64,000 nucleotides of DNA, from contig CAYFGP010000003.1 of the NCBI GenBank assembly GCA_964342385.1, forward strand, positions 69,244-133,243. Reading direction: 5' to 3'. The notes below the pieces were generated by a model. That model made no database searches. It was given only the letters and a program-made list of their open reading frames with translations, and was not told where the DNA came from. How positions within the stretch are numbered: the stretch's first letter is position 1; each line of letters starts with the position of its first letter. The translations under genes were made by a program, and so were the position numbers. Positions 23,280 through 57,628 of the stretch are shown piece by piece. The stretch is from an uncultured Oleiphilus sp. (GTDB lineage: Bacteria; Pseudomonadota; Gammaproteobacteria; Pseudomonadales; Halomonadaceae).

Positions 23280-24998
23280 ATGAAGCAGACCGAGCAGGAA
23301 TTTCTCAATCAACTGGATAACAAACTCTGGACCGCCGCCGATAAGCTGCGCTCAACATTGGATGCTGCCCAGTATAAACACGCTGTATTAGGTTTGATCT
23401 TTGTTAAGTATGTGTCAGATGCTTTTTCCCTACGTCAGGATGAGATCAAAGCCGATCTGCTTAATCCTGAACATGAGTATTACCTTGATCCAGAGGATTA
23501 CTCAGAGGAGGAACTGGCGGAAGAGATGGCCATCGAGCTGGAGCAGCGCGACTTCTACACCGAGAAGAACGTGTTCTGGTTACCGCCTGAATCCCGTTGG
23601 TCGTTTCTGCAAGACAAGGCTCCTACCGTGATCGGGGGCAGAGAGTTAGAGGTTACCGACGCTAACGGCAAGACGACTCAAAAGAAGATCACCTCTGTCG
23701 GCCACCTGATTGATAACGCCCTGGAAGGTATCGAGCGGGATAATGCCAAGTTAAAAGGCGTATTAAACAAACACTATGCTCAATTAAAAATTGATCAGTC
23801 AAAACTGAATGAACTGATCAACCTGATCGCGACCATTCCGTTTAACCACGAGTCTTTAAACAGTAAAGATATTCTGGGCCACGTCTACGAGTATATGTTG
23901 GGCCAGTTTGCCCTGGCAGAGGGTAAAAAGGGTGGTCAGTTCTATACACCAGCCTCAATCGTAACCCTGATTGTAGAGATGATAGAACCCTTTGAAGGCC
24001 GGGTATACGATCCTGCTATGGGTTCCGGTGGCTTCTTTGTGCAATCTGAGAAGTTTATCGAGCGTTACGCCAACGAAAAGAAATTCGACCCGATTAGCCA
24101 AAAGCGCAAAATCTCTATTTATGGTCAGGAATATAACCACACCACATGGCAACTCGCCGCCATGAATATGGCGATTCGTGGTCTAGATTATGACTTTGGC
24201 AAAGAACCTGCCAGCACCTACACCAGCGACCAGCACCCGGATCTGCGCGCTGACTTTATTATGGCCAACCCACCTTTCAATATGAAAGAGTGGAACAGCG
24301 GTGTCGATGAAAACGACCCGCGCTGGAAATACGGCACACCACCAGCCGGTAACGCCAACTTTGCCTGGTTGCAGCATATGCTGCACCACCTGGCACCGGA
24401 TGGCTCTCAAGCCCTGTTACTCGCTAACGGCTCTATGAGCTCCAGCACCAATAACGAAGGCACGATCCGTCAGGCTCTGATCGACAATGATCTGGTGGAA
24501 TGTATGGTCGCCCTGCCAGGGCAACTGTTTACCAACACCCAGATTCCCGCCTGTATCTGGTTCTTAACCAAGAACAAAAAACAGCGAACCGACCGAGCGG
24601 GCCGCAAACTGCGTAACCGCCAGAAAGAAGTGCTCTTTATCGATGCCCGTAACCTCGGCTATATGAAAGACCGGGTTCTCAGAGACTTTAAATGGGAAGA
24701 GATCGAACAGGTCGCCAGCCTATATCACGCCTGGAAAACCGGAGAAACTGTTCATGGCGTAAGCTACGAAGACCAGCCAGGATTCTGTAAATCCGCCACC
24801 CTGGAAGATATTGTCAAACACGATTACGTCCTTACCCCTGGTCGCTATGTCGGTGCCGCAGAAGAAGAGGATGATGGCATTCCATTTAAAGAAAAGATGG
24901 AGACCCTAACCGCCAAACTAAGCGAACAGTTTGCTGAATCCGCCAAGCTCGAAGCAGAGATTAAAAAGAATCTAGAGGGGTTAGGTTATGACATCTAA
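23280..24998 (+). CDS. hsdM: Type I restriction-modification methyltransferase subunit
   Basis: LWTAADKLRS N-terminus; EGKKGGQFYTP; motif I VYDPAMGSGG; motif IV MANPPFN (m6A); LTPGRYVG. Confidence 0.96.
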   Translation: MKQTEQEFLNQLDNKLWTAADKLRSTLDAAQYKHAVLGLIFVKYVSDAFSLRQDEIKADLLNPEHEYYLDPEDYSEEELAEEMAIELEQRDFYTEKNVFWLPPESRWSFLQDKAPTVIGGRELEVTDANGKTTQKKITSVGHLIDNALEGIERDNAKLKGVLNKHYAQLKIDQSKLNELINLIATIPFNHESLNSKDILGHVYEYMLGQFALAEGKKGGQFYTPASIVTLIVEMIEPFEGRVYDPAMGSGGFFVQSEKFIERYANEKKFDPISQKRKISIYGQEYNHTTWQLAAMNMAIRGLDYDFGKEPASTYTSDQHPDLRADFIMANPPFNMKEWNSGVDENDPRWKYGTPPAGNANFAWLQHMLHHLAPDGSQALLLANGSMSSSTNNEGTIRQALIDNDLVECMVALPGQLFTNTQIPACIWFLTKNKKQRTDRAGRKLRNRQKEVLFIDARNLGYMKDRVLRDFKWEEIEQVASLYHAWKTGETVHGVSYEDQPGFCKSATLEDIVKHDYVLTPGRYVGAAEEEDDGIPFKEKMETLTAKLSEQFAESAKLEAEIKKNLEGLGYDI

Positions 24999-26331
24999 TT
25001 GGCAAACTTATACCCTTGGTGACGTATGTGAAAAGATTACTGACGGTGCTCATCAAAGCCCTAAGTCTGTAGACGATGGTAAGCCAATGGCTTCTGTTAA
25101 GGATTTAAGCTACTTTGGGGTAGATTTATCGGGTGCACGAAAAATATCTCAAGAGGATTTTGACTCTCTCGTAAGGCAAGGCTGCAAGCCTGAAATTGGT
25201 GATGTCCTAATTGCTAAGGATGGTAATACCGCTTTAGATACAGTTTGCACTGTGGATAAAGAATTAGATGCAGTTCTTCTATCTTCTGTTGCAATATTAA
25301 GGCCTAATTCAGAAAAGGTTGATTCCGAGTTCTTGAAATATTATTTGTCTTCACCACGGACAATTGATTATCTGAAGTCAAATTTTATATCTGGTGCAGC
25401 TATTCCTAGGGTCGTGTTGCGTGATTTTAGAAAAGCGCTTATTACACTACCACCCGTTAGCTTACAGTTGAGAATTTCAAACATTCTTCGCTCTATAGAT
25501 AAAAAGATTCTGAATAATATTGAATCAAACCAAACCTTAGAAGAAATGGCTCAAGCCCTCTTCAAATCTTGGTTTGTAGATTTTGACCCAGTTAAAGCCA
25601 AAATGAGTAGTGAACAGCCGGTAGGTATGGGTCAGGAAACAGCGGAGCTTTTCCCTAATAGACTTGTGAGTTCTGAGTTAGGAATGATTCCTGATGGATG
25701 GGATGTTGGTACGATTGATTCATATACGACGCTGATTATTGATCACCGTGGCAAAACACCAAAGAAACTTGGCAGTGACTGGGTTGAAAGTGGTTACCCT
25801 GCAATATCTGCAAAAAATATCAAATCAAAGAAAATTGTCAGAGAAGATACTATCCGCTTTATTAATGAAGCAACTTATAGAAAATGGATGAAGGAGCCAT
25901 TGGTCAAGGGGGATATTATTATGACTTCCGAAGCACCAATGGGGGAGCTTTATTTCTATGATGGAGTTTCACCGTTTTGTCTAAGCCAAAGGCTATATGG
26001 ATTACGTGCAAACCCACAGCTTACTTCACCTGAGTTTCTATATTTCTGGTTGCAAACAGTTAAAGCTCAATCAGATATGGAAGGTCGAGCTTCAGGTACA
26101 ACAGCACTAGGTATTAAACAAGCTGAATTAAGAAAAGTTAAAGTACTTAGCCCTCCAATTTGGTTAGTGAGAAAATTTAGCCAGTTTGTTGGAGGCTTAG
26201 TCGAACTGTCGGCTGAAAATAATAGATCAAATGAGTCGTTGATAAACTTGCGTGATACTCTTCTACCTAAACTCCTATCTGGTGAGATTCAGCTATCTGA
26301 AACTGAAAGCCTGACTGGGGCGGTAGTGTGA
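24988..26331 (+). CDS. hsdS: Type I RM specificity subunit
   Basis: Two variable TRDs separated by conserved NQTLEEMAQALFKSWFVDFDP and a terminal LRDTLLPKLLSGE; overlaps the hsdM stop by 11 nt; AT-richer than hsdM. Confidence 0.95.
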   Translation: MTSNWQTYTLGDVCEKITDGAHQSPKSVDDGKPMASVKDLSYFGVDLSGARKISQEDFDSLVRQGCKPEIGDVLIAKDGNTALDTVCTVDKELDAVLLSSVAILRPNSEKVDSEFLKYYLSSPRTIDYLKSNFISGAAIPRVVLRDFRKALITLPPVSLQLRISNILRSIDKKILNNIESNQTLEEMAQALFKSWFVDFDPVKAKMSSEQPVGMGQETAELFPNRLVSSELGMIPDGWDVGTIDSYTTLIIDHRGKTPKKLGSDWVESGYPAISAKNIKSKKIVREDTIRFINEATYRKWMKEPLVKGDIIMTSEAPMGELYFYDGVSPFCLSQRLYGLRANPQLTSPEFLYFWLQTVKAQSDMEGRASGTTALGIKQAELRKVKVLSPPIWLVRKFSQFVGGLVELSAENNRSNESLINLRDTLLPKLLSGEIQLSETESLTGAVV

Positions 26332-26410
26332 TGTGGTTGGCTCTTGCTCTAAGTAGTTTAGAGTCATTCTCAGCATATATCGTATCTTAAAAAATAGATT
26401 AGGTATTCTG

Positions 26411-27430
26411 ATGATTACTGATTTTGAGTTAAAGAACTTTGGCCCTATTAATCAGATATCAGGTCATTCTCTGAGCTCAATCAATCTGATTATTGGAGAT
26501 AATGGGGCAGGAAAAACCTTTCTGCTTAAAGCTTTATATAGTGCACTAAAAAGTCATGAGAGTACTGATCAAAGTGATGGGCAGCGAGGTTTTTCAAAGG
26601 TTTTATCTAATAAACTATCTCGCACTTTTCAAACAGAGAAAGTTGGAGATCTTGTTTCAAAAGGGAAAGGAAAGAGGCTACAGCTAACTTTAAACACCAA
26701 AGATAATCAATATTTAGTGTTTTCTTTTGGGGCGGAAACTAAAAGTAAGATTACTCAGTTGCAGAATCATCTAGAGTCGAGAGGTGCAAGTACAGTATTT
26801 TTGCCTTCTCAAGAAGTGTTATCTCCGACTCCTGTTATTTTGGATTCCCAATTACGGGATAATGCATTTGCTTTTGATGACACCTGCTTGGATCTAGCCT
26901 TAGCATTACAAAAGCAATCCCAGCCATCGGCCGACAGCGATACTTTATCTCTAGCAAGCCGACAATTAGGCGCAATGCTGGGTGGCAAGATTGAGTTTGA
27001 TACCGTTAAACGATGTTGGGTCTATAAAAAGAGAAATAGTCGATATCCAATATCTGCAGTCGCCGATGGCTTTAAGAAGATTGCAACTTTTGATATCTTG
27101 TTAAGAAATCGCTTTATCAATGAAGGCTCTATAGTATTTGTTGATACACCTGAATCGGCTTTGCACCCTACAAACGTTGTCGAACTCTTAGACGTAATCA
27201 GCTTGTTAGCTCAATCTGGTGTTCAGTTCTTTATCGCTAGTCATTCCTATTTCGTGATTAAAAAACTGTTGTTGGTAGCCAATAATGAGAAAATGCAAAT
27301 ACCTGTGTTTGTTGCAGACAATGCAGGTGACTGGAGACAAAGCTGTTTATTAGAAGATGGCTTGCCTGAGAACGAGATTATTAATAAGTCAATACGCTTA
27401 TTTGAGCAAGAGTTTACAGGAAGCTTCTGA
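26411..27430 (+). CDS. ABC/AAA_21-like ATPase with non-canonical Walker B
   Basis: Walker A GDNGAGKT, signature-like ADGFKK, Walker B FVDTPESALHP (usually DEPE), H-loop ASHS. Confidence 0.82.
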   Translation: MITDFELKNFGPINQISGHSLSSINLIIGDNGAGKTFLLKALYSALKSHESTDQSDGQRGFSKVLSNKLSRTFQTEKVGDLVSKGKGKRLQLTLNTKDNQYLVFSFGAETKSKITQLQNHLESRGASTVFLPSQEVLSPTPVILDSQLRDNAFAFDDTCLDLALALQKQSQPSADSDTLSLASRQLGAMLGGKIEFDTVKRCWVYKKRNSRYPISAVADGFKKIATFDILLRNRFINEGSIVFVDTPESALHPTNVVELLDVISLLAQSGVQFFIASHSYFVIKKLLLVANNEKMQIPVFVADNAGDWRQSCLLEDGLPENEIINKSIRLFEQEFTGSF

Positions 27431-28604: not shown

Positions 28605-29801
28605 ATGATGAAAGCACCTCTACATGATAGTCATTATGTAATAGAGAAGGTTGAGCAGTATCTTCAAAATAAATTGGATGAAAACAGAGGCTTTAATGAC
28701 GAAGTAAATAGTAGTGCTCTGGTTGAAATTGCTAAGGAAGGGCCAAAAGTTAAAGTTACTAGCTTAACTGATCCCGAGACGCATTTTAGCTATGATGTTA
28801 GTGATATTCTATTTTGGATAGAAAGAGAAACATATTTCGATGAATTTTCAAAATGGAATGGTGCTAAGCTGACCGATAAGCATGAATCTACAATTGATTA
28901 TCTGAGAAAGACGAATCAGCTTCCGTTATTCCAGGATCTAATTGCGGCAATACAGCGACAACGTATCGCCCCTTTTATTGGTGCTGGAGCATCTTATCCT
29001 GCTGGATATCCAATCTGGAGGGATGCTCTAGAGTCTTTAGCTAAACAGCTTGGAGATAATGTTTTTGCAGAGATTAAAGATGCTTTAGATGAGTATCGTT
29101 ATCTCTATGTTGCCGAACACTTATACAAGAAAAATGAACCTTTTTTTAATAATTACATACAAACTGATTTTCGCTTAAAGCCTAGGTATGAAGAAGATGA
29201 TCCTATTTTTCCTCCTGTTATAGAAGTATTACCTATGCTGGCCAAAGGATGTATAGTAACAACTAACTTTGATAGGCTAATTGAGAAAAAATTTGAACAA
29301 GTGAATAGTAGACCTTTGGCTGGTTATATGTATGGTAAACAAGCTGAGAATGGTTTTGTCAGTCAGCTCTTAAAGGGTGAAAACTGTTTGATGAAGTTGC
29401 ATGGTGACTTAGAACAGAGTCAATCTTATGTATTTACCGAATCTCAGTACAATGAAGCGTATGGGACTGAGGAAATTGATTTTTCTAAACAGCTACCTCG
29501 ATCATTACGCCAGATTTATATCAGTTATTCCCTATTATTTATTGGTTGTTCGTTAGAACAGGATCGTACACTGGATCTGTTTCAATCAGTTAAGGCTCAA
29601 GGTCATTTCGAAATCCCAAGTCATTTTGCATTATTACCTGAGTCTGAAGGAGAAGATAAAGCTACAAAGATGGGGCGCCTTCTGGATATGAATATCAGGC
29701 CTATCTGGTATGAGTCGAAAGATAAAGATCACTCTATGCTAGAAAAGTTGCTGCTACTCGCCATTGATGTAGCTGAGAAGAAGTTTAGTCTGGGAGGTTA
29801 A
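28605..29801 (+). CDS. SIR2-like (SIR2_2) domain protein, predicted NAD+ hydrolase, with ~105-aa N-terminal domain
   Basis: PFIGAGAS, IVTTNFD, MKLHGD and LLFIGCSL sirtuin motifs; AT-rich; stop is 3 nt before the hsdR ATG. Confidence 0.88.
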   Translation: MMKAPLHDSHYVIEKVEQYLQNKLDENRGFNDEVNSSALVEIAKEGPKVKVTSLTDPETHFSYDVSDILFWIERETYFDEFSKWNGAKLTDKHESTIDYLRKTNQLPLFQDLIAAIQRQRIAPFIGAGASYPAGYPIWRDALESLAKQLGDNVFAEIKDALDEYRYLYVAEHLYKKNEPFFNNYIQTDFRLKPRYEEDDPIFPPVIEVLPMLAKGCIVTTNFDRLIEKKFEQVNSRPLAGYMYGKQAENGFVSQLLKGENCLMKLHGDLEQSQSYVFTESQYNEAYGTEEIDFSKQLPRSLRQIYISYSLLFIGCSLEQDRTLDLFQSVKAQGHFEIPSHFALLPESEGEDKATKMGRLLDMNIRPIWYESKDKDHSMLEKLLLLAIDVAEKKFSLGG

Positions 29802-45281: not shown

Positions 45282-45427
45282 TTGCAACTGGTACGGTGCC
45301 CATAAAAAATATGAACTCTTAGAGTTGTATCAATCTCCCATCATCTTCTGGATTGGCTATGGTTAAAGGCCAAGTTGGTCACTAAGCACTCACACAAAAG
45401 TTCCTCTTTAGCAGATGGCATCATTCT

Positions 45428-45616
45428 TCAGCCGCTGGCCAAAAAATATCGAAATACTTTTGTGTAAGTATGTATGAACAATTTAAGTTTTGATTTGCGA
45501 CTAAATTTGTCGCATTCTTGGCTTGGGAAAGATGATAGCGGTCGACATAAGGGGCTCTTTTCACTTGGTTCACTGAGAGATTGGATAATCCGCTCCTTGT
45601 TAACCTTTCGCCTCAT
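45428..45616 (-). CDS. Small basic ORF (62 aa) in the cro position, divergent from the repressor
   Basis: SD AGAGGA just upstream of the ATG and a divergent position across operator repeats; no recognisable HTH. Confidence 0.3.
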   Translation of the reverse strand: MRRKVNKERIIQSLSEPSEKSPLCRPLSSFPSQECDKFSRKSKLKLFIHTYTKVFRYFLASG

Positions 45617-47011: not shown

Positions 47012-47287
47012 ACCCTTTTTACACTACCGGTCTTATCATCTGTTTTGGCTTTCTTATTAATCTATTCTAATTGCCGCACAAAAATTCAAATAGCATTATC
47101 CATGTAGGGTATTATGAGGTCACAGATAAGCACTCACACTAAAGCTTCTCTGTGACAAAGGACTTCATTCTTCAGCTGTTGATCAAAGATCGTTGAAACA
47201 TTCTTTGTAGGTGAGTAGTAAATGAGTGAGTGAAGCTATGGCCTGCCAGCGCAAAGAATATGCACGCTTTGAAATAGGATAGATCGC

Positions 47288-49162: not shown

Positions 49163-49337
49163 TCTAAGATTGAACCGCTGTTGTAGTGGGATATAGTTTT
49201 ACTTTGTAGTGCTCTTTATACTCTTACACAAAAGTGTTGCGGTATTTTTTAGCCAACGGCTGAAGAATCCATTTGCTAAAGAGAAACTTTTGTGGGGTAC
49301 TGAGAGACCAGCTTTAAAGGCATCAATGGCTTGTCTC

Positions 49338-50511
49338 CTATGGGCCATTGGTCTGTATGATTAGACATAGTCATTGAAATATCTGTCCTGTCCCGAATAA
49401 TATCCTTTGCACTCAGGATAATACGATGAATGTCCTAACTCTATCCAATTGCCTTCTGAAGATTGCCGTAAGCTGTAATCTCGGATCAGAAAAGCATCTC
49501 TGCCTCAAAGGGATGTTATCTGGGGCTGAATCATTCTTATGCTAAGTGACGGTCTGACGTTAGCCTACATTGTTCGAAAAATAAGTTCTAGTCGCTCTGT
49601 AGTTAACAAATGGCATAGAAGGTATGAATCAACTGGTGCCATGGAATTAAGAGACGCCTCTCGAAGCGGTCAGCCAACAAAAATGACTCCAAAGATTCGC
49701 CAAAAAATCTTGCATATGACTGTTCTCATGATTCCCTAGGAAGCATCCTATTGGAGTGTTAGGTTGATAGTGAAATATGAAGGGATTACCCACTGGCAAG
49801 TTGCTTGGATCTGGAAAGAAGCCGATCTAAAAACATATCCTTCTCACATCTAAGATGAGCAGTGATCCTTTTCTTACTGAAAAAGTAGTCGATATTATCG
49901 TGATTTATGTGTAATGCAGTAGTCTTGGCTGTTGATGAAAATATACAAATACTTGATCGAGCTCATCCTATATTACTGCTGAAACCTGGAATGGCGTAGT
50001 GTTGTGCTCACGACTATAGACGTCATGGAATGGTTAACCTGTATGCATACTTCGATATATTAGTTGGAAAAGTCTGAAGCCGTATTACTCAATGTTACAG
50101 AGCGAAAAAGCTCCTGAGCTTTATAAAGCAAATAGATCAGTCAGTACCACAAGGCCTGGATCTTCATTTGATTTTAGATGACAGCAGTACGCATAAAACA
50201 CCAAAAATGCAAGAATGGTAAGAAGAGCATCCTTGCTTTGTTATTCGCTTCACTCTTACGAGTGCCTTATGACTAAATGCAATTGAAGGTCGGTTTGCTC
50301 AGCTGGAAAGGCGATCACTTCATCGAGGAAGTTTTAATAGCACGGAAGAATTCAGGAAAGAGATTAAGCGCTTCATCAAGGCTCATAATTAGGAGAATAG
50401 CAAATTTTTTATCTGGAAAAAGTCAGCAGAGGCGACTTTAGGACCTATAGCGTAGGCTAAACTGAGCTTGTTAAAATAAAAGGTTCTCAAATTAACCATA
50501 TGGTCCACTAG
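49338..50511 (+). mobile_element. Decayed IS630-family element (transposase pseudogene)
   Basis: Interrupted frames give an HTH (VVNKWHRRY...LRDASRSGQP), then VDE, HDYRRHG, LHLILDDSSTHKTP and LNAIEGRFAQLERR with several stops/frameshifts. Degenerate terminal repeats CTATGGGCCATTGG and CCATATGGTCCACTAG. Confidence 0.85.
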
Positions 50512-50952
50512 AGGTCGATTTAATCGGCATATAATAAGAATCTTTTAGGGGGTACATGGCAAGCTTAGCTTGGTATACGATGTTTTATTAGTGCATCTTA
50601 AGAATGTTGTTTTATTATGCGACCTTATTTGTCTTGTTTTTTTATTTATATCTCACTGATTTTTTTAATGTTTTGGTGTCGTGATTGCTGTTGGTTTTTA
50701 GTTGATAAGACATGTTGTTTCATTTCTGTTATCTTGCGATCTATAAAATATTCTTAACGATATTCTGTCGTCATAAAAAATCCATTTATCACTTGTATTG
50801 AATTGTGGTAGAAGTGTTAGGTAAATGTTGAACGGTTTTATATTTTATCGTTTTGCATTATTTCGTCCGTTCTGTAGGTTTTTATGTTAGTAAAAGCTAA
50901 TTATTTTCCAGAATGCATTAATGGATATGAATATCACGAGTAGGAAGTCAGG

Positions 50953-53091
50953 ATGAATAAAGATGTGATAGTTATTGGTGCCGGTTTTACTGGGCTCACG
51001 GCGGCCAAAAAATTGGAAAAAGAGGGAAAAGATTTTTTAGTTCTTGAAGCAGAAAATAGACTAGGAGGAAGAAATTTTAGCTTTAGTCCTAAAAATATAG
51101 AAATGCCAGGGCTAGAATATGAACACGGCTCTCAATACATAGGACACTCTCAAGAGCCGCTGTGGTCGACTGTGACTGGTGATGATTTTTATAACTGGAT
51201 GGTTGAGAATTACCCGGAATATACAAAATCATTTGTACCTGATGTAGCCAATTCAAGTTCTGATTGCGACGGTAGCTTACCGCCTTACATTGTTGATAAC
51301 TACACTGATAGACTACCCTACGATGAGCAAGTGCTTATCCTGACTGACACCAGAACAAAAGAACCGACTCGATTCCCATTTAATAAAAATGATACCCCGT
51401 ACGGTATCACGGGTTTACCCAGTGGTATTGGTCTGCCTAGTATCTTGGCAATTGGCCTTGTTTCCTTAGATATTATATTTATTGAAAGCTGTATTAATGT
51501 TGTTGAGCCATGGGAGTCTGAGTTTAAAGGTCTTTATACTGCAGAAGACCTTGATTCAATCAGCTTTGAGGAATGGTTGAATGAAAGCCCGCGCAGCAAA
51601 TATATGACACCAACGGCTCTTGATGCTATTCGTATTGCTGTTCAAGCACTGCTTTCGGTTGAGCCTTCAGAAATATCTGCTTTGTATTTTTTCTGGTATT
51701 GCGCCTGTAATGAAGGCTTCTTCAATGAAGTTAATGATTCTATCAATGGCCCTCAGCAGTATTGGTTACGCTGTGGGTTTGGCAAAGTACTTGAGTTTTG
51801 TAGTGAAAGCTTCAAGGAGCAAATTCAGTTTGAGCAAACAGTGAAATCTGTTTCTGTAGATGAAAGCTCAGAGTATCCTATTTGCTTAAAGGTTAATGAA
51901 CATGACGCTTATTATGCCAAACAACTTATTGTTGCAGTGTCACCTCATACCGCTAATAAAATAGAATGGCCGAGTGATTTGCCCGAGTACTATCAAGCGC
52001 TAATGAAGCAAGGTATGGGGCGTACTCTCAAAGCTCAAGTGTTTTATGATAAAAGCTGGTGGAATAATATTGATAATACAGGGTGGCAAGGTTATTCGGG
52101 TGGTACCTCTTATCCTGTGTTATGGACCATGGACAACTCAGCCTATGATGGTAATGGAACATATCACTCGTGTCTGATGACATTCACGATTGGCGACCAG
52201 ATTAACGAACTTGAAAAAGCTTTGGCAACCGCTGAGTCAGATCCTCAGGAAGGGCTTAAGTCATTCTTGACGAAACATATTAGTTATTTGTTTACAGGTC
52301 GTTATGATTACGGACCAGCCTTAAAACCTGTCGCTATTGAATCAAGCCTTTGGGTTAAAAAAACTAATATAGATGGCTATCAAGTAGGGACTTTTATCGG
52401 TGGTGGACCTAATACTGTCTTTGCGCCAAACTTTATTACTTCAATGTATGATGGCAAACCAGCCCTATCCTATATAAATCAGCCATGGAAAAATTTAATC
52501 TATTTTTCTGCCGCTGAGCTTGCACGCAATCTTAATCCGAAAACGCCGGAGGTTTGTGAAATTAAACAAGATGAATCTGGGTCTCTACTTCCCACAGAGC
52601 AGTTCTCAGATAATCGTTGTAACTTAGGTTACATGAATGGCGCTATCTATAGTGGTCAATATGTTGCTCAGCAAGTGATCGAGGGTGTTGATTTTAAAGA
52701 ACCCGTTTCCCCTGAATCTTCAGCTGAGAAAGGACATTGGCAACCGATCACCCTGCTATCTTATGCACTCAGAAGGGCGTTAGATTCTTTCTTTAGCTCT
52801 GGGCAGACCTTTTCAGACATTACTCAGAACCAACAAGAAAAACTGCTAAGTAGCTTGTTAGGAGACTTGGATAAAGATTCAACAGATCAAGGAAGTATGG
52901 GGCATATGCTTAGAAATAGAGCTATGGAGCTCTATATGAATAAGGATATTAATAAAATTGATTTCCTGGCTAATTTAGCTAAAGAGCAACTTGACAGCTT
53001 TGATGTTGTCCATGCTCAGCTTAAACAGGAAGGTGTCTCAGAAGAGATGATTGACTTCCTGGCAAGGTTGTATGGCCAGAGTGCATCTTAA
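50953..53091 (+). CDS. Flavin-dependent amine oxidase (MAO family) with ~130-aa C-terminal extension
   Basis: Dinucleotide-binding VIGAGFTGLTAA...VLEAENRLGGR; EHGSQYIG; GRTLKAQVFYDKSWW (conserved Lys); GYMNGAIYSG. Confidence 0.85.
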   Translation: MNKDVIVIGAGFTGLTAAKKLEKEGKDFLVLEAENRLGGRNFSFSPKNIEMPGLEYEHGSQYIGHSQEPLWSTVTGDDFYNWMVENYPEYTKSFVPDVANSSSDCDGSLPPYIVDNYTDRLPYDEQVLILTDTRTKEPTRFPFNKNDTPYGITGLPSGIGLPSILAIGLVSLDIIFIESCINVVEPWESEFKGLYTAEDLDSISFEEWLNESPRSKYMTPTALDAIRIAVQALLSVEPSEISALYFFWYCACNEGFFNEVNDSINGPQQYWLRCGFGKVLEFCSESFKEQIQFEQTVKSVSVDESSEYPICLKVNEHDAYYAKQLIVAVSPHTANKIEWPSDLPEYYQALMKQGMGRTLKAQVFYDKSWWNNIDNTGWQGYSGGTSYPVLWTMDNSAYDGNGTYHSCLMTFTIGDQINELEKALATAESDPQEGLKSFLTKHISYLFTGRYDYGPALKPVAIESSLWVKKTNIDGYQVGTFIGGGPNTVFAPNFITSMYDGKPALSYINQPWKNLIYFSAAELARNLNPKTPEVCEIKQDESGSLLPTEQFSDNRCNLGYMNGAIYSGQYVAQQVIEGVDFKEPVSPESSAEKGHWQPITLLSYALRRALDSFFSSGQTFSDITQNQQEKLLSSLLGDLDKDSTDQGSMGHMLRNRAMELYMNKDINKIDFLANLAKEQLDSFDVVHAQLKQEGVSEEMIDFLARLYGQSAS

Positions 53092-56000
53092 ATGGCTACG
53101 ACATCTGAATCTACTGCTGATTCAAAGATCCTCCCTTTCCAGATTGGCAACTTTCTGGTTAAGGGAGTGTTGGGGCGTGGAGGCATGGGGATCGTTTATG
53201 AAGCTTGGGACGAGCTAAACGAACGGTCCGTTGCTCTTAAGGCTATTCAGCTTAATATTCCCTCTGCGCTTTACCGATTGAAGCTGGAATACCGCCAGGT
53301 CTCCTCAATTGTTCATCCTAATCTGGTTGGTTTATACGATCTAACATATCTGGATGGGCATTGTTATATCGTGATGGAGTACATCGAAGGCAAGGCACTT
53401 GGTCATGTTATTGCTAACACCTATGGACTAGATAATAGATTAGAAGCACTTACTTCTACAAAAATTCTTGCAGATAGCCCTTATGTTGATCAGTCCGAAG
53501 TACACTGGCCTCCTAATAAACCATTCGGATCGGATATCAACGTACTGGATATTGCAAGGCAGTTAGCCCAGGGAATATTTGCGTTGCATGTGGGTGGTGT
53601 ACTGCATTTAGATATAAAACCATCAAATATGATATTAAAAGATGATGGTCAAATTAAGCTGCTTGATTTTGGCGTTGCTCAACTGATCAATGTTAAACAT
53701 AGAAAACTGCATTATGAGAGGGCCGCTACTTTACAGTATGTTTCTCCCGAATACTTAGATGGTGAAGTCCCAACTGCTGCCAGTGACTGGTACAGTTTTG
53801 GTGTTGTTGTGTTTGAGCTAATAACAGGCAAACAATATACAAGAAGGCTGTTTCACAGAAACCCACATGAGCAAGCTATTTTTGATGAGGTTACTCTTAC
53901 ATTACTGAATGACTATTTGCCATCAAAAATAACTCTATTGTTAGAACGGTTACTGAATGAAGATCCATTGAAACGTCCACCAGATAGAGAGATTCTTGAA
54001 GTATTTAACATTCATGAGCCGCTTTGGCATATAGGGGAAGAGAAAGACGAAAAAAAGGTATTTATTGGCAGGCAAGATGAATTAGAGCAATTAAGTAATG
54101 CATTTGATTGTCATAGAGAAGGAAAGTCTAATATTGTCAATGTCGTCGGGGCCCCAGGCGTTGGCAAAAGTGAGTTGATTAATCACTTCTTAGATGCTTA
54201 TAAGGATTCGCTTATACTGGTAGGACGCTGTTATGAGCGAGAGACAGTCCCTTTCAAAGCTTTAGATATGGTCATTGATGATTTTTCTGAGTACCTGAAA
54301 AGCTTACCAGCGACAATTCGCGATAGTTATGTTGTTGATGGATTTGAGTATTTAGCAATACTATTTCCTGTTCTCAAATATCTTGTGCCAGATAAGACTT
54401 TGAATCTTAATATTGATGCAGCTCATTGTCGGATTCTGGCAATGAAGGCATTAGCATCCAGTCTGACTTTAATTGTTAATGATCAACCCGTTATTATTTT
54501 TATTGATGATATTCAATGGGGAGATGAAGATAGTGCCAACTTATTGATCAACCTAATGGAGTTTCAGTCATATAAAAAGCCTTTTATTGTATTGAGTGAA
54601 AGATCGGGAGGAGATTTAAACAGTCGTTTTACTTCTACGCTCAATCAATTCTGGAGCAATAGCAGCTCGGATATGCAATACCAGACTATTGAAGTTGAAT
54701 CTTTTGATGAAAAAGAGGGTATGACGTTGGTTGATGCTCTTTTGGGGAATGCACATGCCATTTCAGAGCAAAGGGCGCAAGAGATAGTTCGAGTCAGTCG
54801 AGGTATTCCATTTATTTTGGAACAGCTTCTTCTTTATTATGATCAAACTGGGGCTATGGAGAATATTAATGCTGTCGGTATTATCAAATCCAGGCTTGAT
54901 GTTCTGTCAAATCAATCCCGAGAAGTCTTATCTTTATTAGCTATTGCTGGTCAGCCCGTTAAGGTTAGTGCAATTCTAGAAGCTGCTGGAGTTTCCAATA
55001 TAGATGATTTTTCTTTCACTTGTCTTAGAGCCCAACGATTTCTGATTGTTCAGCATGACGAGTCGGTACAATACTTTCACGACCAAATTCGTGAATCTGT
55101 ATTGATTCTTGAGTCAGAGAATAGGGTGGAAGAGAAGGCGAGAAAGCTCGCACTTGTATTGGAGAAATATTCTGATTCTGATAATTCATTGTTAGGTCGA
55201 CTCTTCTATCAAGGCGGAGAAGATCAGAAAGCTATTTCGTTTATGCTAAGAGCGGCAGACGATGCTGAAAGCAGTTTGGCATTTAGCCGTGCAGCTGATT
55301 TATATCAGAATGTTATTAATTGGTTACCTGATTCAGAGTTTGATGAGAGCCGAAGAGTTAAAGAACGAAAAGCTATCGCATGGTCTAAAGCAGGCTATGG
55401 AAAAAAAGCAGCTCAGTTATTCAGTGACTTAATGCGAACAGGTGGCGTAAGTGACGAAGAAAGAGCTCGGCTAGGCGCTTTGGCAGCAGAACAATTCATG
55501 TACGGGGGGCATATTGAGGAAGGTGAAAAAATATTTCGTCCTTTATTAAAAAAGTGGAGATTGCCTTACCCTTCCTCAATCAAGCTGGCGACCATTAGTA
55601 TTATATACAGCGCCTTGTTATTAGAACTCAAAAGGAGAAGGCTTTCTTCTCGCGCGTTCAGCCGCTCTCAGAAAGTACACCCTAAAATCGAACTGGCTTT
55701 TTCTGTAGCACAAGCCATGGGGAACTGGGATCCTATTAGAAGCCTCCATTTTTCTTTAATCGGCCTGAGGTTAGCAATATCTGCGAATGATTTACCCTAT
55801 ATTGTTCAAGGATTGAATATATACGCTTTAGTACGCTCATACGGTGGCAAGCAAAAAGACAAAGAAGTGAGTGATTCGATTTTTAAACAAGCCTCTAGTC
55901 TAGCTAAGCAATTAGATGATCCTGCTAATACCAACTATGGCCTGTTACTTAAAGGGATTGCTCATACTGCACGTAGCGAATTGAGGCAAGGTATCCAAAT

Positions 56001-56871
56001 GATCATGGAAGCCGAATCCCAGTTCTCACAACGGCTGGTAGATACAAAAAATAATAGTGTTATTGCTCGGACAACTGCACTTAATATCTATTGGCAAATG
56101 GGTGAGTTAAATCAGATTGGTTCCCTAGCACCAGGATGGATTCAAGATGCTAAAGCCCGAGGGGATAAATTCTCTCTTGTTGAGTTAAATATGTTTCTTG
56201 GAATTTACGATGCTGCGAGAGGAGACTATATCAAAGGGCGTAAAACGATTGTGTCTGCAATTGAGTCTTGGCCATTGCAAGATTTTACTTTTCAGCACTG
56301 GGTCGCATCTAAAGCAATTACGCAAATTGATTTATTGTCTGGTCGGGAAGCTGAAGCTTGGCCGCGGTTACAACAAGAGATTAAGTTGGCTAAAAAAGCT
56401 GGTTTATTTGATTCTGTTTTTGTGCGCATCGACTTTATGTTCTTAAAGGGAAGGGTTGCATTGGCTTGTGCTGAGTCCGGCAGTAAATTAAGACCCTCGA
56501 TGATAAAGGTTGCACAGAGAGAGTCTGATAGGCTCAGGAAGGAAAATAATCATGCAGCAAAAGGGCTGGGCTTTTGTCTTCTGGCTGCAGTCGCAAGGCT
56601 AAGGAATCAGCCAGAACAGGAAATCCTGGCCCTTAAAGAGTCATGTATCTATTTTGAACTGGCTCAGATGGAATTGTATTTATTAGCGATGAATAATTGT
56701 TTGGCAAAAATTAATCGTGAACAAAGCACTCTTAAAAAAATAAAAGATCGTTTTATTGATCTAGGTGTTAAAGATCCTGAACGATACCAAATAATTTACT
56801 ACCCATATATGGCTTATTATGATGAAAAGAATATTTTTGAGTTCAATGATCGGGATTGCCTGATGGAATAA
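53092..56871 (+). CDS. Hanks-type Ser/Thr kinase fused to a STAND (SWACOS/AAA_16-type) NTPase and a helical repeat C-terminus
   Basis: Kinase: LGRGGMGIVY, VALK, HLDIKPSN, DFG, YVSPE, SDWYSFGV. NTPase: FIGRQDEL, GAPGVGKS, IFIDDIQWGD. Long TPR-like helical tail. Confidence 0.9.
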   Translation: MATTSESTADSKILPFQIGNFLVKGVLGRGGMGIVYEAWDELNERSVALKAIQLNIPSALYRLKLEYRQVSSIVHPNLVGLYDLTYLDGHCYIVMEYIEGKALGHVIANTYGLDNRLEALTSTKILADSPYVDQSEVHWPPNKPFGSDINVLDIARQLAQGIFALHVGGVLHLDIKPSNMILKDDGQIKLLDFGVAQLINVKHRKLHYERAATLQYVSPEYLDGEVPTAASDWYSFGVVVFELITGKQYTRRLFHRNPHEQAIFDEVTLTLLNDYLPSKITLLLERLLNEDPLKRPPDREILEVFNIHEPLWHIGEEKDEKKVFIGRQDELEQLSNAFDCHREGKSNIVNVVGAPGVGKSELINHFLDAYKDSLILVGRCYERETVPFKALDMVIDDFSEYLKSLPATIRDSYVVDGFEYLAILFPVLKYLVPDKTLNLNIDAAHCRILAMKALASSLTLIVNDQPVIIFIDDIQWGDEDSANLLINLMEFQSYKKPFIVLSERSGGDLNSRFTSTLNQFWSNSSSDMQYQTIEVESFDEKEGMTLVDALLGNAHAISEQRAQEIVRVSRGIPFILEQLLLYYDQTGAMENINAVGIIKSRLDVLSNQSREVLSLLAIAGQPVKVSAILEAAGVSNIDDFSFTCLRAQRFLIVQHDESVQYFHDQIRESVLILESENRVEEKARKLALVLEKYSDSDNSLLGRLFYQGGEDQKAISFMLRAADDAESSLAFSRAADLYQNVINWLPDSEFDESRRVKERKAIAWSKAGYGKKAAQLFSDLMRTGGVSDEERARLGALAAEQFMYGGHIEEGEKIFRPLLKKWRLPYPSSIKLATISIIYSALLLELKRRRLSSRAFSRSQKVHPKIELAFSVAQAMGNWDPIRSLHFSLIGLRLAISANDLPYIVQGLNIYALVRSYGGKQKDKEVSDSIFKQASSLAKQLDDPANTNYGLLLKGIAHTARSELRQGIQMIMEAESQFSQRLVDTKNNSVIARTTALNIYWQMGELNQIGSLAPGWIQDAKARGDKFSLVELNMFLGIYDAARGDYIKGRKTIVSAIESWPLQDFTFQHWVASKAITQIDLLSGREAEAWPRLQQEIKLAKKAGLFDSVFVRIDFMFLKGRVALACAESGSKLRPSMIKVAQRESDRLRKENNHAAKGLGFCLLAAVARLRNQPEQEILALKESCIYFELAQMELYLLAMNNCLAKINREQSTLKKIKDRFIDLGVKDPERYQIIYYPYMAYYDEKNIFEFNDRDCLME

Positions 56872-56890
56872 TCATGTAGTTAGTTTTGAG

Positions 56891-56929
56891 ATCTGTATTT
56901 ACGATAAACATCGTAAATACAGATTTTTG
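56891..56929. terminator. Terminator between the convergent kinase and PAP2 genes
   Basis: ATCTGTATTTACGAT-aaac-ATCGTAAATACAGAT, a perfect 15-bp stem followed by TTTTT. Confidence 0.7.
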
Positions 56930-56938
56930 CTAAAAAGG

Positions 56939-57628
56939 TTACTGATTAGAAGAAGACTTAGCTATACAAGAGTCTTCCTTTAACATCCACTTGGCCATCA
57001 GCCAGCCACTGGCGTAACAGATATAGCCTGAGAAGATAATATCACTCAGAAAGTGCCCGCCCTGAATTACTCGAATACCACCAACAAACAAGCCTAAAGC
57101 TATACCAAACGTCATCCAGCGGCGGCAACGGAATACCCAACCCAGTGCGATAAAGGCAAACCCCATGGCGGCATGGCCGCTCACAAATGAGCAGTTTTTC
57201 TGACACTGGTTACTCACTTCTAGTGGTGGCGTAAAGTTCAGTTGGCCGCCAAACTCTACTACGTCCCTTGGACGGGCTCGATCCCAGTTATCTTTAAAGC
57301 CGGTGTGTACAATGATGCCAGGGCCAATCAGGAGAAAGGCAAGCATAAAGTAAGATTTTCGCTTGTGGGTTCTACTCCATTCTGGTGCTTGTTTAAGTAG
57401 AGGGACTAGGCATAACGCGAGTAATAGGGGAATGATAACGTTGGGAAGTTCCTTGAAGAGCCAGTAGATAAACTGTACAAACAGATTGTCGTTGGCGGGG
57501 AAACTCACTGTGGTCGGGTCATAGAATAACCCTGTTATCATGATGTCCAGCTCGGGCCAGAGGGTGAACAGAAGCGCTGCGAATAGGAAACTTGTGGAAG
57601 CTATGCCAAATGGCCATTTTTTTATCAT
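56939..57628 (-). CDS. PAP2 family integral membrane phosphatase (lipid A 4'-phosphatase LpxF-like)
   Basis: KDNWDRARP (K-x6-RP), SFVSGH and RVIQGGHFLSD motifs; several TM helices. Confidence 0.85.
   Translation of the reverse strand: MIKKWPFGIASTSFLFAALLFTLWPELDIMITGLFYDPTTVSFPANDNLFVQFIYWLFKELPNVIIPLLLALCLVPLLKQAPEWSRTHKRKSYFMLAFLLIGPGIIVHTGFKDNWDRARPRDVVEFGGQLNFTPPLEVSNQCQKNCSFVSGHAAMGFAFIALGWVFRCRRWMTFGIALGLFVGGIRVIQGGHFLSDIIFSGYICYASGWLMAKWMLKEDSCIAKSSSNQ

Follow-up and report, generated by a model that had tools for sequence, protein, structure and literature searches.

A monoamine oxidase-like flavoenzyme paired with a PknK-type kinase-STAND: a candidate two-protein signalling unit in an uncultured Oleiphilus sp.

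Two adjacent genes on a contig of an uncultured Oleiphilus sp. raise the question of whether a flavin amine oxidase and a kinase-fused STAND NTPase work together and, if they do, whether they serve signalling or defence against phages. The genes form a compact unit of 5.9 kb within the window, by which we mean the whole 64,000-nucleotide stretch of DNA analysed (GenBank assembly GCA_964342385.1, contig CAYFGP010000003.1, positions 69,244 to 133,243). A first-pass annotation of the sequence had described them as an acquired, co-translated module and as a candidate signalling or defence system. We found that the oxidase belongs to a small family that is recurrently encoded beside kinase-STANDs, and the pair resembles a module for amine sensing and signalling more than it does a system for defence against phages.

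The first open reading frame (ORF1, 50953-53091, plus strand) encodes a monoamine oxidase (MAO)-like flavin amine oxidase of 712 aa, and the second (ORF2, 53092-56871, plus strand) encodes the kinase-STAND of 1259 aa. At the junction between them (TAAATG, 53089-53094, plus strand), the oxidase stop codon TAA (53089-53091) abuts the ATG of the kinase-STAND (53092) without a gap, as had been noted at first pass and as both the ORF list and the sequence confirmed. The two ORFs share a reading frame, with only this stop codon in between, and an in-frame junction of this kind suggests that their translation is coupled. Translational coupling is typical of the subunits of complexes. Readthrough of the TAA would yield a fusion protein of ~1970 aa.

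Recurrence of the pairing was surveyed by reading gene neighbourhoods and by scanning 28 loci with hidden Markov models; 21 loci were informative and six were too short. L006 came from a scan of genome contigs with the full oxidase alignment, and further loci came from a scan of metagenome contigs with an alignment restricted to the oxidase core. The oxidase family stood beside a kinase-STAND in 18 of the 21 informative loci. In 15 of them the kinase-STAND lay directly downstream on the same strand (the window, L001 from Pseudoalteromonas rubra, L005 from Chondromyces, L006, L091-L094, L096-L098, L100, L102, L104 and L105). The oxidase at three further distinct loci (L087, L099 and a third recovered as L002 = L003 = L004) adjoined a divergent partner with the domain order Pkinase-AAA_16-GAF-Guanylate_cyc. 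The linked loci came from Pseudoalteromonas rubra, Chondromyces, Polyangiaceae, Sandaracinaceae and soil metagenomes, and the pairing was retained in at least six lineages whose oxidases are no more than 50% identical to one another (lowest 30-35%). The junction took the form of a 4-nt ATGA overlap in nine myxobacterial loci, TAAATG in the window, and a gap of 2-8 nt in P. rubra. Recurrence, which the first-pass annotation had singled out as the point to check, is therefore borne out across divergent lineages and extends to overlapping start and stop codons. The window, P. rubra and the myxobacterial loci have only the oxidase and the kinase-STAND in common.

The linkage is one-sided. Because the oxidase family is small and the kinase-STAND family huge (> 1900 matches), and because a family oxidase was absent beside unpaired kinase-STAND relatives in all four examined, the oxidase looks like a dedicated accessory of the STAND. 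We also considered whether the paired kinases form a dedicated clade of their own. They made up no clear, exclusive clade: the partners in Chondromyces and L092 were as near to the unpaired kinase-STANDs P0131 and P0159 as to each other. At two other loci (L108, 4852-9837; L109, 4921-9951), the kinase-STANDs P0131 and P0148 have a gene for an MR_MLE (mandelate racemase/muconate-lactonising) enzyme directly upstream on the same strand, with an amino-acid permease beside it, and L108 has an ordinary 451-aa amine oxidase three genes downstream. This arrangement suggests that a metabolic enzyme together with a kinase-STAND may be a more general design.

Our literature search found no description of an amine oxidase paired with a kinase-STAND, and neither the large STAND surveys nor the conflict-systems paper mentions an amine oxidase partner. 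The PADLOC comparison likewise returned no such system, in keeping with the first-pass statement that no described one was known. The parts are thus of known kinds, a MAO-family flavoenzyme and a PknK-type kinase-STAND, and it is the conserved, coupled pairing and the dedicated oxidase subfamily that appear undescribed.

The oxidase matched Amino_oxidase (PF01593) at 89.1 bits (cut-off 19.8) and, at its N-terminus, NAD_binding_8 at 48 bits, with the dinucleotide-binding GxGxxG motif (VIGAGFTG) at residues 6-13. The closest solved sequences were human MAO-B and MAO-A (6e-24), followed by cyclohexylamine and putrescine oxidases. An AlphaFold2 model built on 28 family members (pTM 0.81) was matched by Foldseek to MAO-A/B and putrescine oxidase at TM-scores of 0.8-0.88 on target length, with 0.87 against MAO-A (2BXR) and 0.87 against putrescine oxidase, and the predicted structure has the two-domain MAO fold. 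By alignment, K360, Q268 and Y560 are equivalent to K296, Q206 and Y435 of MAO-B. The oxidase looks catalytically competent because these equivalents of Lys296, Gln206 and Tyr435 are invariant, along with the GxGxxG motif, among the 28 family members. Where MAO has SGGCY, the family has an invariant GGGPN, an equivalence drawn from the motif, which lies outside the coverage of the phmmer alignment. The SGGCY of animal MAOs holds Cys397, to which flavin adenine dinucleotide (FAD) is covalently attached, and the second cage residue, Tyr398. On this reading of the motif, the FAD of the oxidase would be bound non-covalently, with no 8-alpha-S-cysteinyl FAD, and its substrate cage would be modified or halved. 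We detected neither a signal peptide nor a membrane anchor in the protein.

The catalytic core of ~580 aa is followed by a C-terminal helical extension (residues ~590-712). These last ~120-130 residues are helical and of low confidence in the AlphaFold2 model, and they are missing from ordinary amine oxidases, whose profile match stops near position 468. We regard the extension as a candidate docking element. Searches with the oxidase returned only ~80 close relatives, all 650-785 aa long, at 55-58% identity in P. rubra and 30-36% in the others, which were mostly from Myxococcota where a source was named. In an exhaustive profile search of 1.84 billion representatives, the family comprised ~16 full-length clusters at 50% identity, below which scores dropped sharply to ordinary oxidases of 450-550 aa that matched over the core only. 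Longer matches in the search were ordinary amine oxidases that carry an added ceramidase, amidase, patatin or C2 domain, and the next-best ordinary oxidases (P0230, P0241, P0243, P0280 and P0303) include fusions with neutral ceramidase, amidase and patatin phospholipase. Such fusions hint that related oxidases act on amines freed from lipids or amides, which offers a possible clue to the class of substrate. At L096 (9286-11596), a soil-metagenome locus, a frameshift or an assembly error divides the family oxidase between two overlapping ORFs, and the kinase-STAND there is intact.

The partner protein begins with a Hanks-type Ser/Thr kinase domain (53158-53997, plus strand; residues 23-302), which matched Pkinase at 139.1 bits (cut-off 31.7; 2.4e-40). 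Its catalytic motifs are intact by alignment, including the glycine loop GRGGMG, VALK, HLDIKPSN and DFG. In the window (53605-53628, residues 172-179) and in P. rubra the kinase is of the non-RD type (HLD), and most myxobacterial partners are RD kinases (HRD). The kinase domain is followed by a STAND NTPase core (54061-54591, plus strand; residues 324-500) that matched AAA_16 at 72.7 bits (cut-off 32.6; 6.5e-20); matches to NB-ARC and nSTAND1 were weak and below threshold. The core has a Walker A motif (GAPGVGKS) and a Walker B motif (IIFIDD), both conserved in 14 of 14 aligned partners. An AlphaFold2 model of residues 311-1259 (pLDDT 86) comprised the NTPase core, a helical arm and ~540 residues of paired helices (model residues 388-925). 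From this model and Foldseek, we delimited a TPR-like, all-helical repeat region (55183-56796, plus strand; residues ~698-1235) that is presumably the sensor and that was matched to TPR proteins and to the 6MFV sensor. The top Foldseek match in the PDB was the TPR-STAND PH0952 (6MFV, E = 2.9e-12), and SAMD9, Apaf-1, Roq1 and plant NLRs, Avs4 and RdrA followed, at TM-scores of 0.25-0.44. Low TM-scores are to be expected for flexible multi-domain proteins.

Taken together, the domain matches and the model give ORF2 the predicted architecture of a soluble, PknK-type kinase-STAND-TPR protein. The P. rubra orthologue is named 'serine/threonine-protein kinase PknK' by NCBI, and outside Pseudoalteromonas even the nearest relatives share just 27-30% identity with the window protein. 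It scored 108.7 bits with the TOMM kinase/cyclase fusion model (TIGR03903), against a cut-off of 705.75, and has no cyclase domain, which places it outside that family. Among the cyclase-type partners found at other loci, the glycine-rich loop of the kinase domain is degenerate, and their output is probably a cyclic nucleotide.

How might the two proteins work together? Our preferred reading, which we hold tentatively, is that they form a signalling unit of two proteins in which the oxidase serves the input of a PknK-type STAND kinase by processing or reporting an amine ligand. We read the pair as a signalling unit because the oxidase family seems to occur almost only as a STAND accessory, is coupled to its partner and carries a family-specific extension. 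We favour an input role for the oxidase because the outputs vary, from kinase only to kinase-like plus GAF plus cyclase, and the NOD and sensor stay constant. Under this proposal, a cytoplasmic MAO-like FAD amine oxidase and a PknK-type kinase-STAND would be made together by translational coupling and would most likely act as a complex encoded by a horizontally mobile module. The oxidase would either convert an amine into a product seen by the TPR sensor or remove an inducing amine; alternatively, it would bind the resting STAND and release or activate it upon meeting its substrate. The STAND would then exchange ADP for ATP and oligomerise, gathering the N-terminal Ser/Thr kinase domains so that downstream targets could be phosphorylated. 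With the cyclase-type partners, the output would be a cyclic nucleotide instead.

There is precedent for enzymes gating a STAND. MalT is kept inactive by the enzymes MalY, Aes and MalK, which bind it directly (PMC10427625), and its activation requires a small-molecule inducer and ATP (PMC10427625, PMC4381067). More generally, TPR-STANDs are autoinhibited until an inducer engages the sensor (PMC6468293). As for mobility, the pair has moved as a unit: it comprises the only two genes common to the window and P. rubra, and the window copy is low in GC and has an IS630 remnant beside it. It has also crossed phyla.

Several observations weigh against the signalling unit that we prefer. Physical contact between oxidase and STAND is inferred, as are a ligand that is either an amine or the product of its oxidation and the way in which information flows. 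A Rosetta-stone search of the same 1.84 billion representatives returned no fusion of oxidase and kinase, the longest family member being 785 aa. A family oxidase can occur alone: three loci were partnerless in the available DNA, two of them on both sides (L088, L089) and one downstream only (L101, cut upstream by the contig end), which makes two or three without a partner. A single closely related clade (72-90% identity) supplies about nine of the 18 linked loci. The distances of oxidase and partner co-varied strongly (r = 0.91, Mantel p = 2e-4), which speaks for joint inheritance, but this correlation owes part to shared species phylogeny. Cyclase-type partners retain K, D, N and DFG in their kinase domain, and phosphorylation of the oxidase is thus possible there too. 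Lastly, evidence for joint transcription comes from metatranscriptome contigs that carry no strand information and may contain DNA, and one of them (X3) also covers recD on the opposite strand.

An alternative that is possible, if on balance unlikely, places the oxidase at the output: the kinase-STAND would sense through its TPR region and phosphorylate the oxidase, or the transcription factor that controls it, to switch amine catabolism or detoxification. The tight operon coupling and the intact catalytic motifs of the kinase would suit this model. It also has a parallel in M. tuberculosis, where PknK controls an adjacent operon headed by the monooxygenase gene mymA through the phosphorylated AraC regulator VirS (PMC4601284), and regulators do occur beside some pairs, with an AraC gene divergently upstream in L091 and an OmpR-type regulator adjoining in L105. 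However, these regulators are not conserved over the loci, and the same oxidase family also pairs with cyclase-output STANDs. A catabolic pathway would further predict conserved transporter or aldehyde dehydrogenase genes beside the pair, and there were none.

We judge it unlikely that the pair is an NLR-like immune or stress module, in which the STAND kinase senses a cue from an invader or from the host and unleashes a cytoplasmic oxidase that makes hydrogen peroxide and aldehyde, or in which the oxidase serves as a guard or decoy that reports the cue; the same assessment applies to a receptor for monoamines or polyamines of a coral host. If true, the former would add a flavin oxidase, as effector or sensor, to the bacterial STAND systems for the first time, and the latter would be a MAO homologue wired to an NLR-like kinase in a coral-associated bacterium. 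The first-pass annotation had raised the possibility that the oxidase is a toxic or signalling effector phosphorylated by the STAND. A toxic effector of this kind fits less well, because kinase-AAA_16-GAF-cyclase proteins, with a probable cyclic-nucleotide output, also occur as partners of the oxidase family.

Quite improbable, in our assessment, is a role in antiphage defence or abortive infection, whereby the STAND senses a phage protein and oligomerises, and the kinase, the oxidase through hydrogen peroxide or aldehyde, or both arrest or kill the cell. The effector-STAND-TPR layout does resemble Avs, with weak fold matches to Avs4 and RADAR RdrA (E = 1e-5 to 5e-4), and the kinase domain is similar to those of PD-T4-6 and MAD6, which are defence kinases. 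The pair is also accessory, patchy and mobile, and in RADAR there is a known case of a STAND-like ATPase that works with an enzyme modifying metabolites. On inspection, however, no recognisable defence genes adjoined the pair in the window or in 10 related loci (about 12 loci inspected, which is no statistical defence score), and the defence-island context suggested at first pass was not found. Neighbours at the other loci were transporters, hydrolases, regulators and assorted enzymes. The family is moreover concentrated in Myxococcota, which are rich in signalling kinase-STANDs, and the genes are expressed in coral and seawater metatranscriptomes.

Comparison with PADLOC, which the first-pass annotation had recommended, returned matches to generic features only, namely the Hanks kinase fold, the P-loop and a Rossmann motif. 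The kinase-domain matches (mad6, PD-T4-6 and MkoA) covered residues 19-306 only. Over residues 311-1259, outside the kinase fold, there were only P-loop matches at 1e-5 or worse (PDC-S27 at 1.4e-5, SngB and mad8). NCBIfam scores fell far below their cut-offs (137 versus 460 for MAD6; 21 versus 990 for PglW), and no MADS or BREX partner genes lay near the pair in the window. By these sequence comparisons, the protein groups with neither the PD-T4-6, MADS MAD6 and BREX PglW kinases nor the Avs and bNACHT antiviral STANDs. Contrary to the antiviral reading offered at first pass, its closest characterised STAND relatives are signalling STANDs, to judge by the PknK naming and the TPR-STAND 6MFV. 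We also considered whether two PADLOC models with near-consecutive numbers, PDLC01086 (C3a186, 'C-3',4' desaturase') and PDLC01088 (C3a189, 'kinase'), represent a known version of the pairing. We treat both matches as generic, the former to the Rossmann motif of the oxidase (residues 4-45) and the latter to the kinase domain only.

It is very unlikely that the oxidase tailors an amine-containing secondary metabolite under the control of the kinase-STAND as a LAL-like pathway regulator. Myxobacteria and P. rubra are prolific producers of natural products, an aromatic ammonia-lyase and a pyridoxal phosphate (PLP) enzyme lie near the Chondromyces pair, and L091 has a halogenase-like flavoenzyme, but biosynthetic core genes are not conserved alongside the pair, only two genes are common between loci, and no cluster surrounds the pair in the window. 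That the adjacency is meaningless, for instance a chance event in kinase-rich genomes such as those of Myxococcota with their numerous kinase-STAND genes, is barely credible and is effectively refuted by linkage in 18 of 21 loci (with the same order and strand in 15), by overlapping or abutting codons at the junction, and by a pairing kept in gammaproteobacteria amid wholly different neighbours.

The pair is preceded by an AT-rich region (50510-50952, plus strand; 443 bp, GC 0.31) that holds a promoter and possibly a long 5' leader. A perfect TATAAT lies at 50530-50535, and two metatranscriptome contigs from independent studies (X3 and X5) start at 50556/50557 with adapter sequence adjoining. 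These starts may mark the 5' end of the transcript, which would place a leader of ~400 nt before the ATG. A riboswitch or other leader RNA was considered and rejected: the leader matched nothing in Rfam at E ≤ 1 and is not conserved in the upstream region of P. rubra. Sequences 95-99% identical to the locus occur in metagenomes and metatranscriptomes from marine, seawater and coral samples. In low-coverage seawater metagenomes, where we looked for presence or absence of the pair, there were fragments only and no joints. Contigs from three metatranscriptome runs cross the junction between the oxidase and the kinase-STAND (X3; X4, 52284-53530; X5, 50556-53389). Because the contigs are strandless and possibly DNA, they are consistent with co-transcription and do not prove it.

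Composition and borders also bear on how the pair came to its present site. The first-pass annotation had called the genes and their upstream region AT-richer than the flanks, and our values agree (GC 0.40 and 0.31, respectively, versus 0.49-0.50 for recD/recB). The pair has a GC content at third codon positions (GC3) of 0.34, compared with means of 0.47 ± 0.04 (GC) and 0.47 ± 0.07 (GC3) for 35 other long ORFs in the window, which puts it ~1.6-1.8 standard deviations below the window mean. Its AT-richness is real but not extreme, because four further window genes are equally AT-rich. Window genes at 669-1517, 24988-27430 and 28605-29801 are as low as the pair (GC 0.37-0.39, GC3 0.29-0.35), and they may have been acquired too.

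On the left, the inserted segment is bordered by a decayed IS630-family transposase (~49530-50389, plus strand) in frame-broken fragments. The ORF list has only short fragments there, and the stop-interrupted peptides match HTH_29 (2.5e-7), HTH_32 (2.2e-7) and DDE_3 (1.2e-4). On the right, an intrinsic terminator (56888-56929, plus strand) lies between the convergent kinase-STAND and PAP2 genes. It consists of a perfect hairpin (56888-56927) with an 18-bp stem and a 4-nt loop, followed by a T-run, and folds at -25.9 kcal/mol (z = -5.6), a stability reached by 0 of 200 shuffles. A simple consensus terminator scanner did not list this hairpin. Both borders had been recognised at first pass, and the accompanying view of an acquired, co-translated module is supported to the extent that the oxidase and kinase-STAND make up a real, self-contained module that was probably acquired and is probably co-expressed.

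Beyond the kinase-STAND, the order continues with a convergent gene for a PAP2-superfamily lipid phosphatase (56939-57628, minus strand), then recD and recB. Named relatives of the RecD protein, from Nitrincola, Halomonas and Pseudomonas, are only ~51% identical to it, and the host is a marine gammaproteobacterium that is poorly sampled. A PAP2_3 fusion also lies near the pair in L006 (1879-4896), which may be a coincidence. The neighbours in the window comprise a phytase-like protein, GFA, an HTH-S24 repressor, a deaminase-like protein, PAP2 and recDB. An island flanked by tRNA genes was ruled out, as there is no tRNA at 40-64 kb. A spot of high depth at 45383-45475 corresponds to a short dispersed repeat of ~80-90 nt, which has three copies to the left of the pair (45383-45468, 47127-47205 and, inverted, 49223-49268) and terminal inverted repeats CACACAAAAGT...ACTTTTGTGT. 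The repeat occurs in metagenome contigs at very high depth with many different flanks, and it thus resembles a miniature inverted-repeat transposable element (MITE) or a repetitive extragenic palindromic (REP) sequence.

PknK-type kinase-STANDs are very numerous and are carried by myxobacteria, actinobacteria and M. tuberculosis, yet the signals they sense are not known, those of PknK included (PMC4601284). An oxidase family almost always encoded next to a STAND offers a testable handle on this input, in that the enzyme would form part of the receptor and an amine, or the product of its oxidation, would be the ligand. Genetics would be feasible if a culturable strain of the named species Pseudoalteromonas rubra, which carries the module, has the pair. 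Should the pair prove to be a defence system, it would represent new effector chemistry.

Set against known systems, the oxidase shares with MAO, putrescine and cyclohexylamine oxidases the fold, the flavin-proximal Lys, the Gln and one Tyr of the aromatic cage. It differs from them in its ~20% identity, GGGPN in the presumed place of SGGCY, the ~130-aa C-terminal extension, the lack of a membrane anchor and its STAND neighbour. The kinase-STAND shares the layout of effector, NTPase and repeat sensor with Avs1-5, bNACHT and RADAR; unlike them, it has no defence-island context and, beyond the P-loop, no PADLOC match to their models. RADAR consists of the ATPase RdrA and the adenosine deaminase RdrB, and we know of no described defence system that combines a kinase effector with a flavin oxidase. 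The best structural match to the NOD-arm-TPR part is PH0952 of Pyrococcus horikoshii (6MFV), for which a mechanism of double autoinhibition has been described (PMC6468293). The likeness is distant (TM-scores 0.34-0.44, 13% identity), and PH0952 has neither a kinase nor an oxidase partner.

The closest counterpart in architecture is PknK of M. tuberculosis (Rv3080c), which is likewise soluble and has an N-terminal Hanks kinase, an AAA/STAND NTPase and a C-terminal helical repeat sensor; the two are likened by architecture and not by direct comparison with Rv3080c. Unlike the kinase-STAND described here, PknK has no translationally coupled MAO-like oxidase and acts via VirS. For an enzyme as the input subunit of a STAND, the model is MalT with MalY, Aes and MalK. 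MalT differs in having a DNA-binding output and enzyme partners encoded outside a coupled operon, and for our pair we infer the interaction that is established for MalT. If the oxidase binds its STAND, the gating principle of MalT and MalY would extend to kinase outputs and to a dedicated, co-evolving partner.

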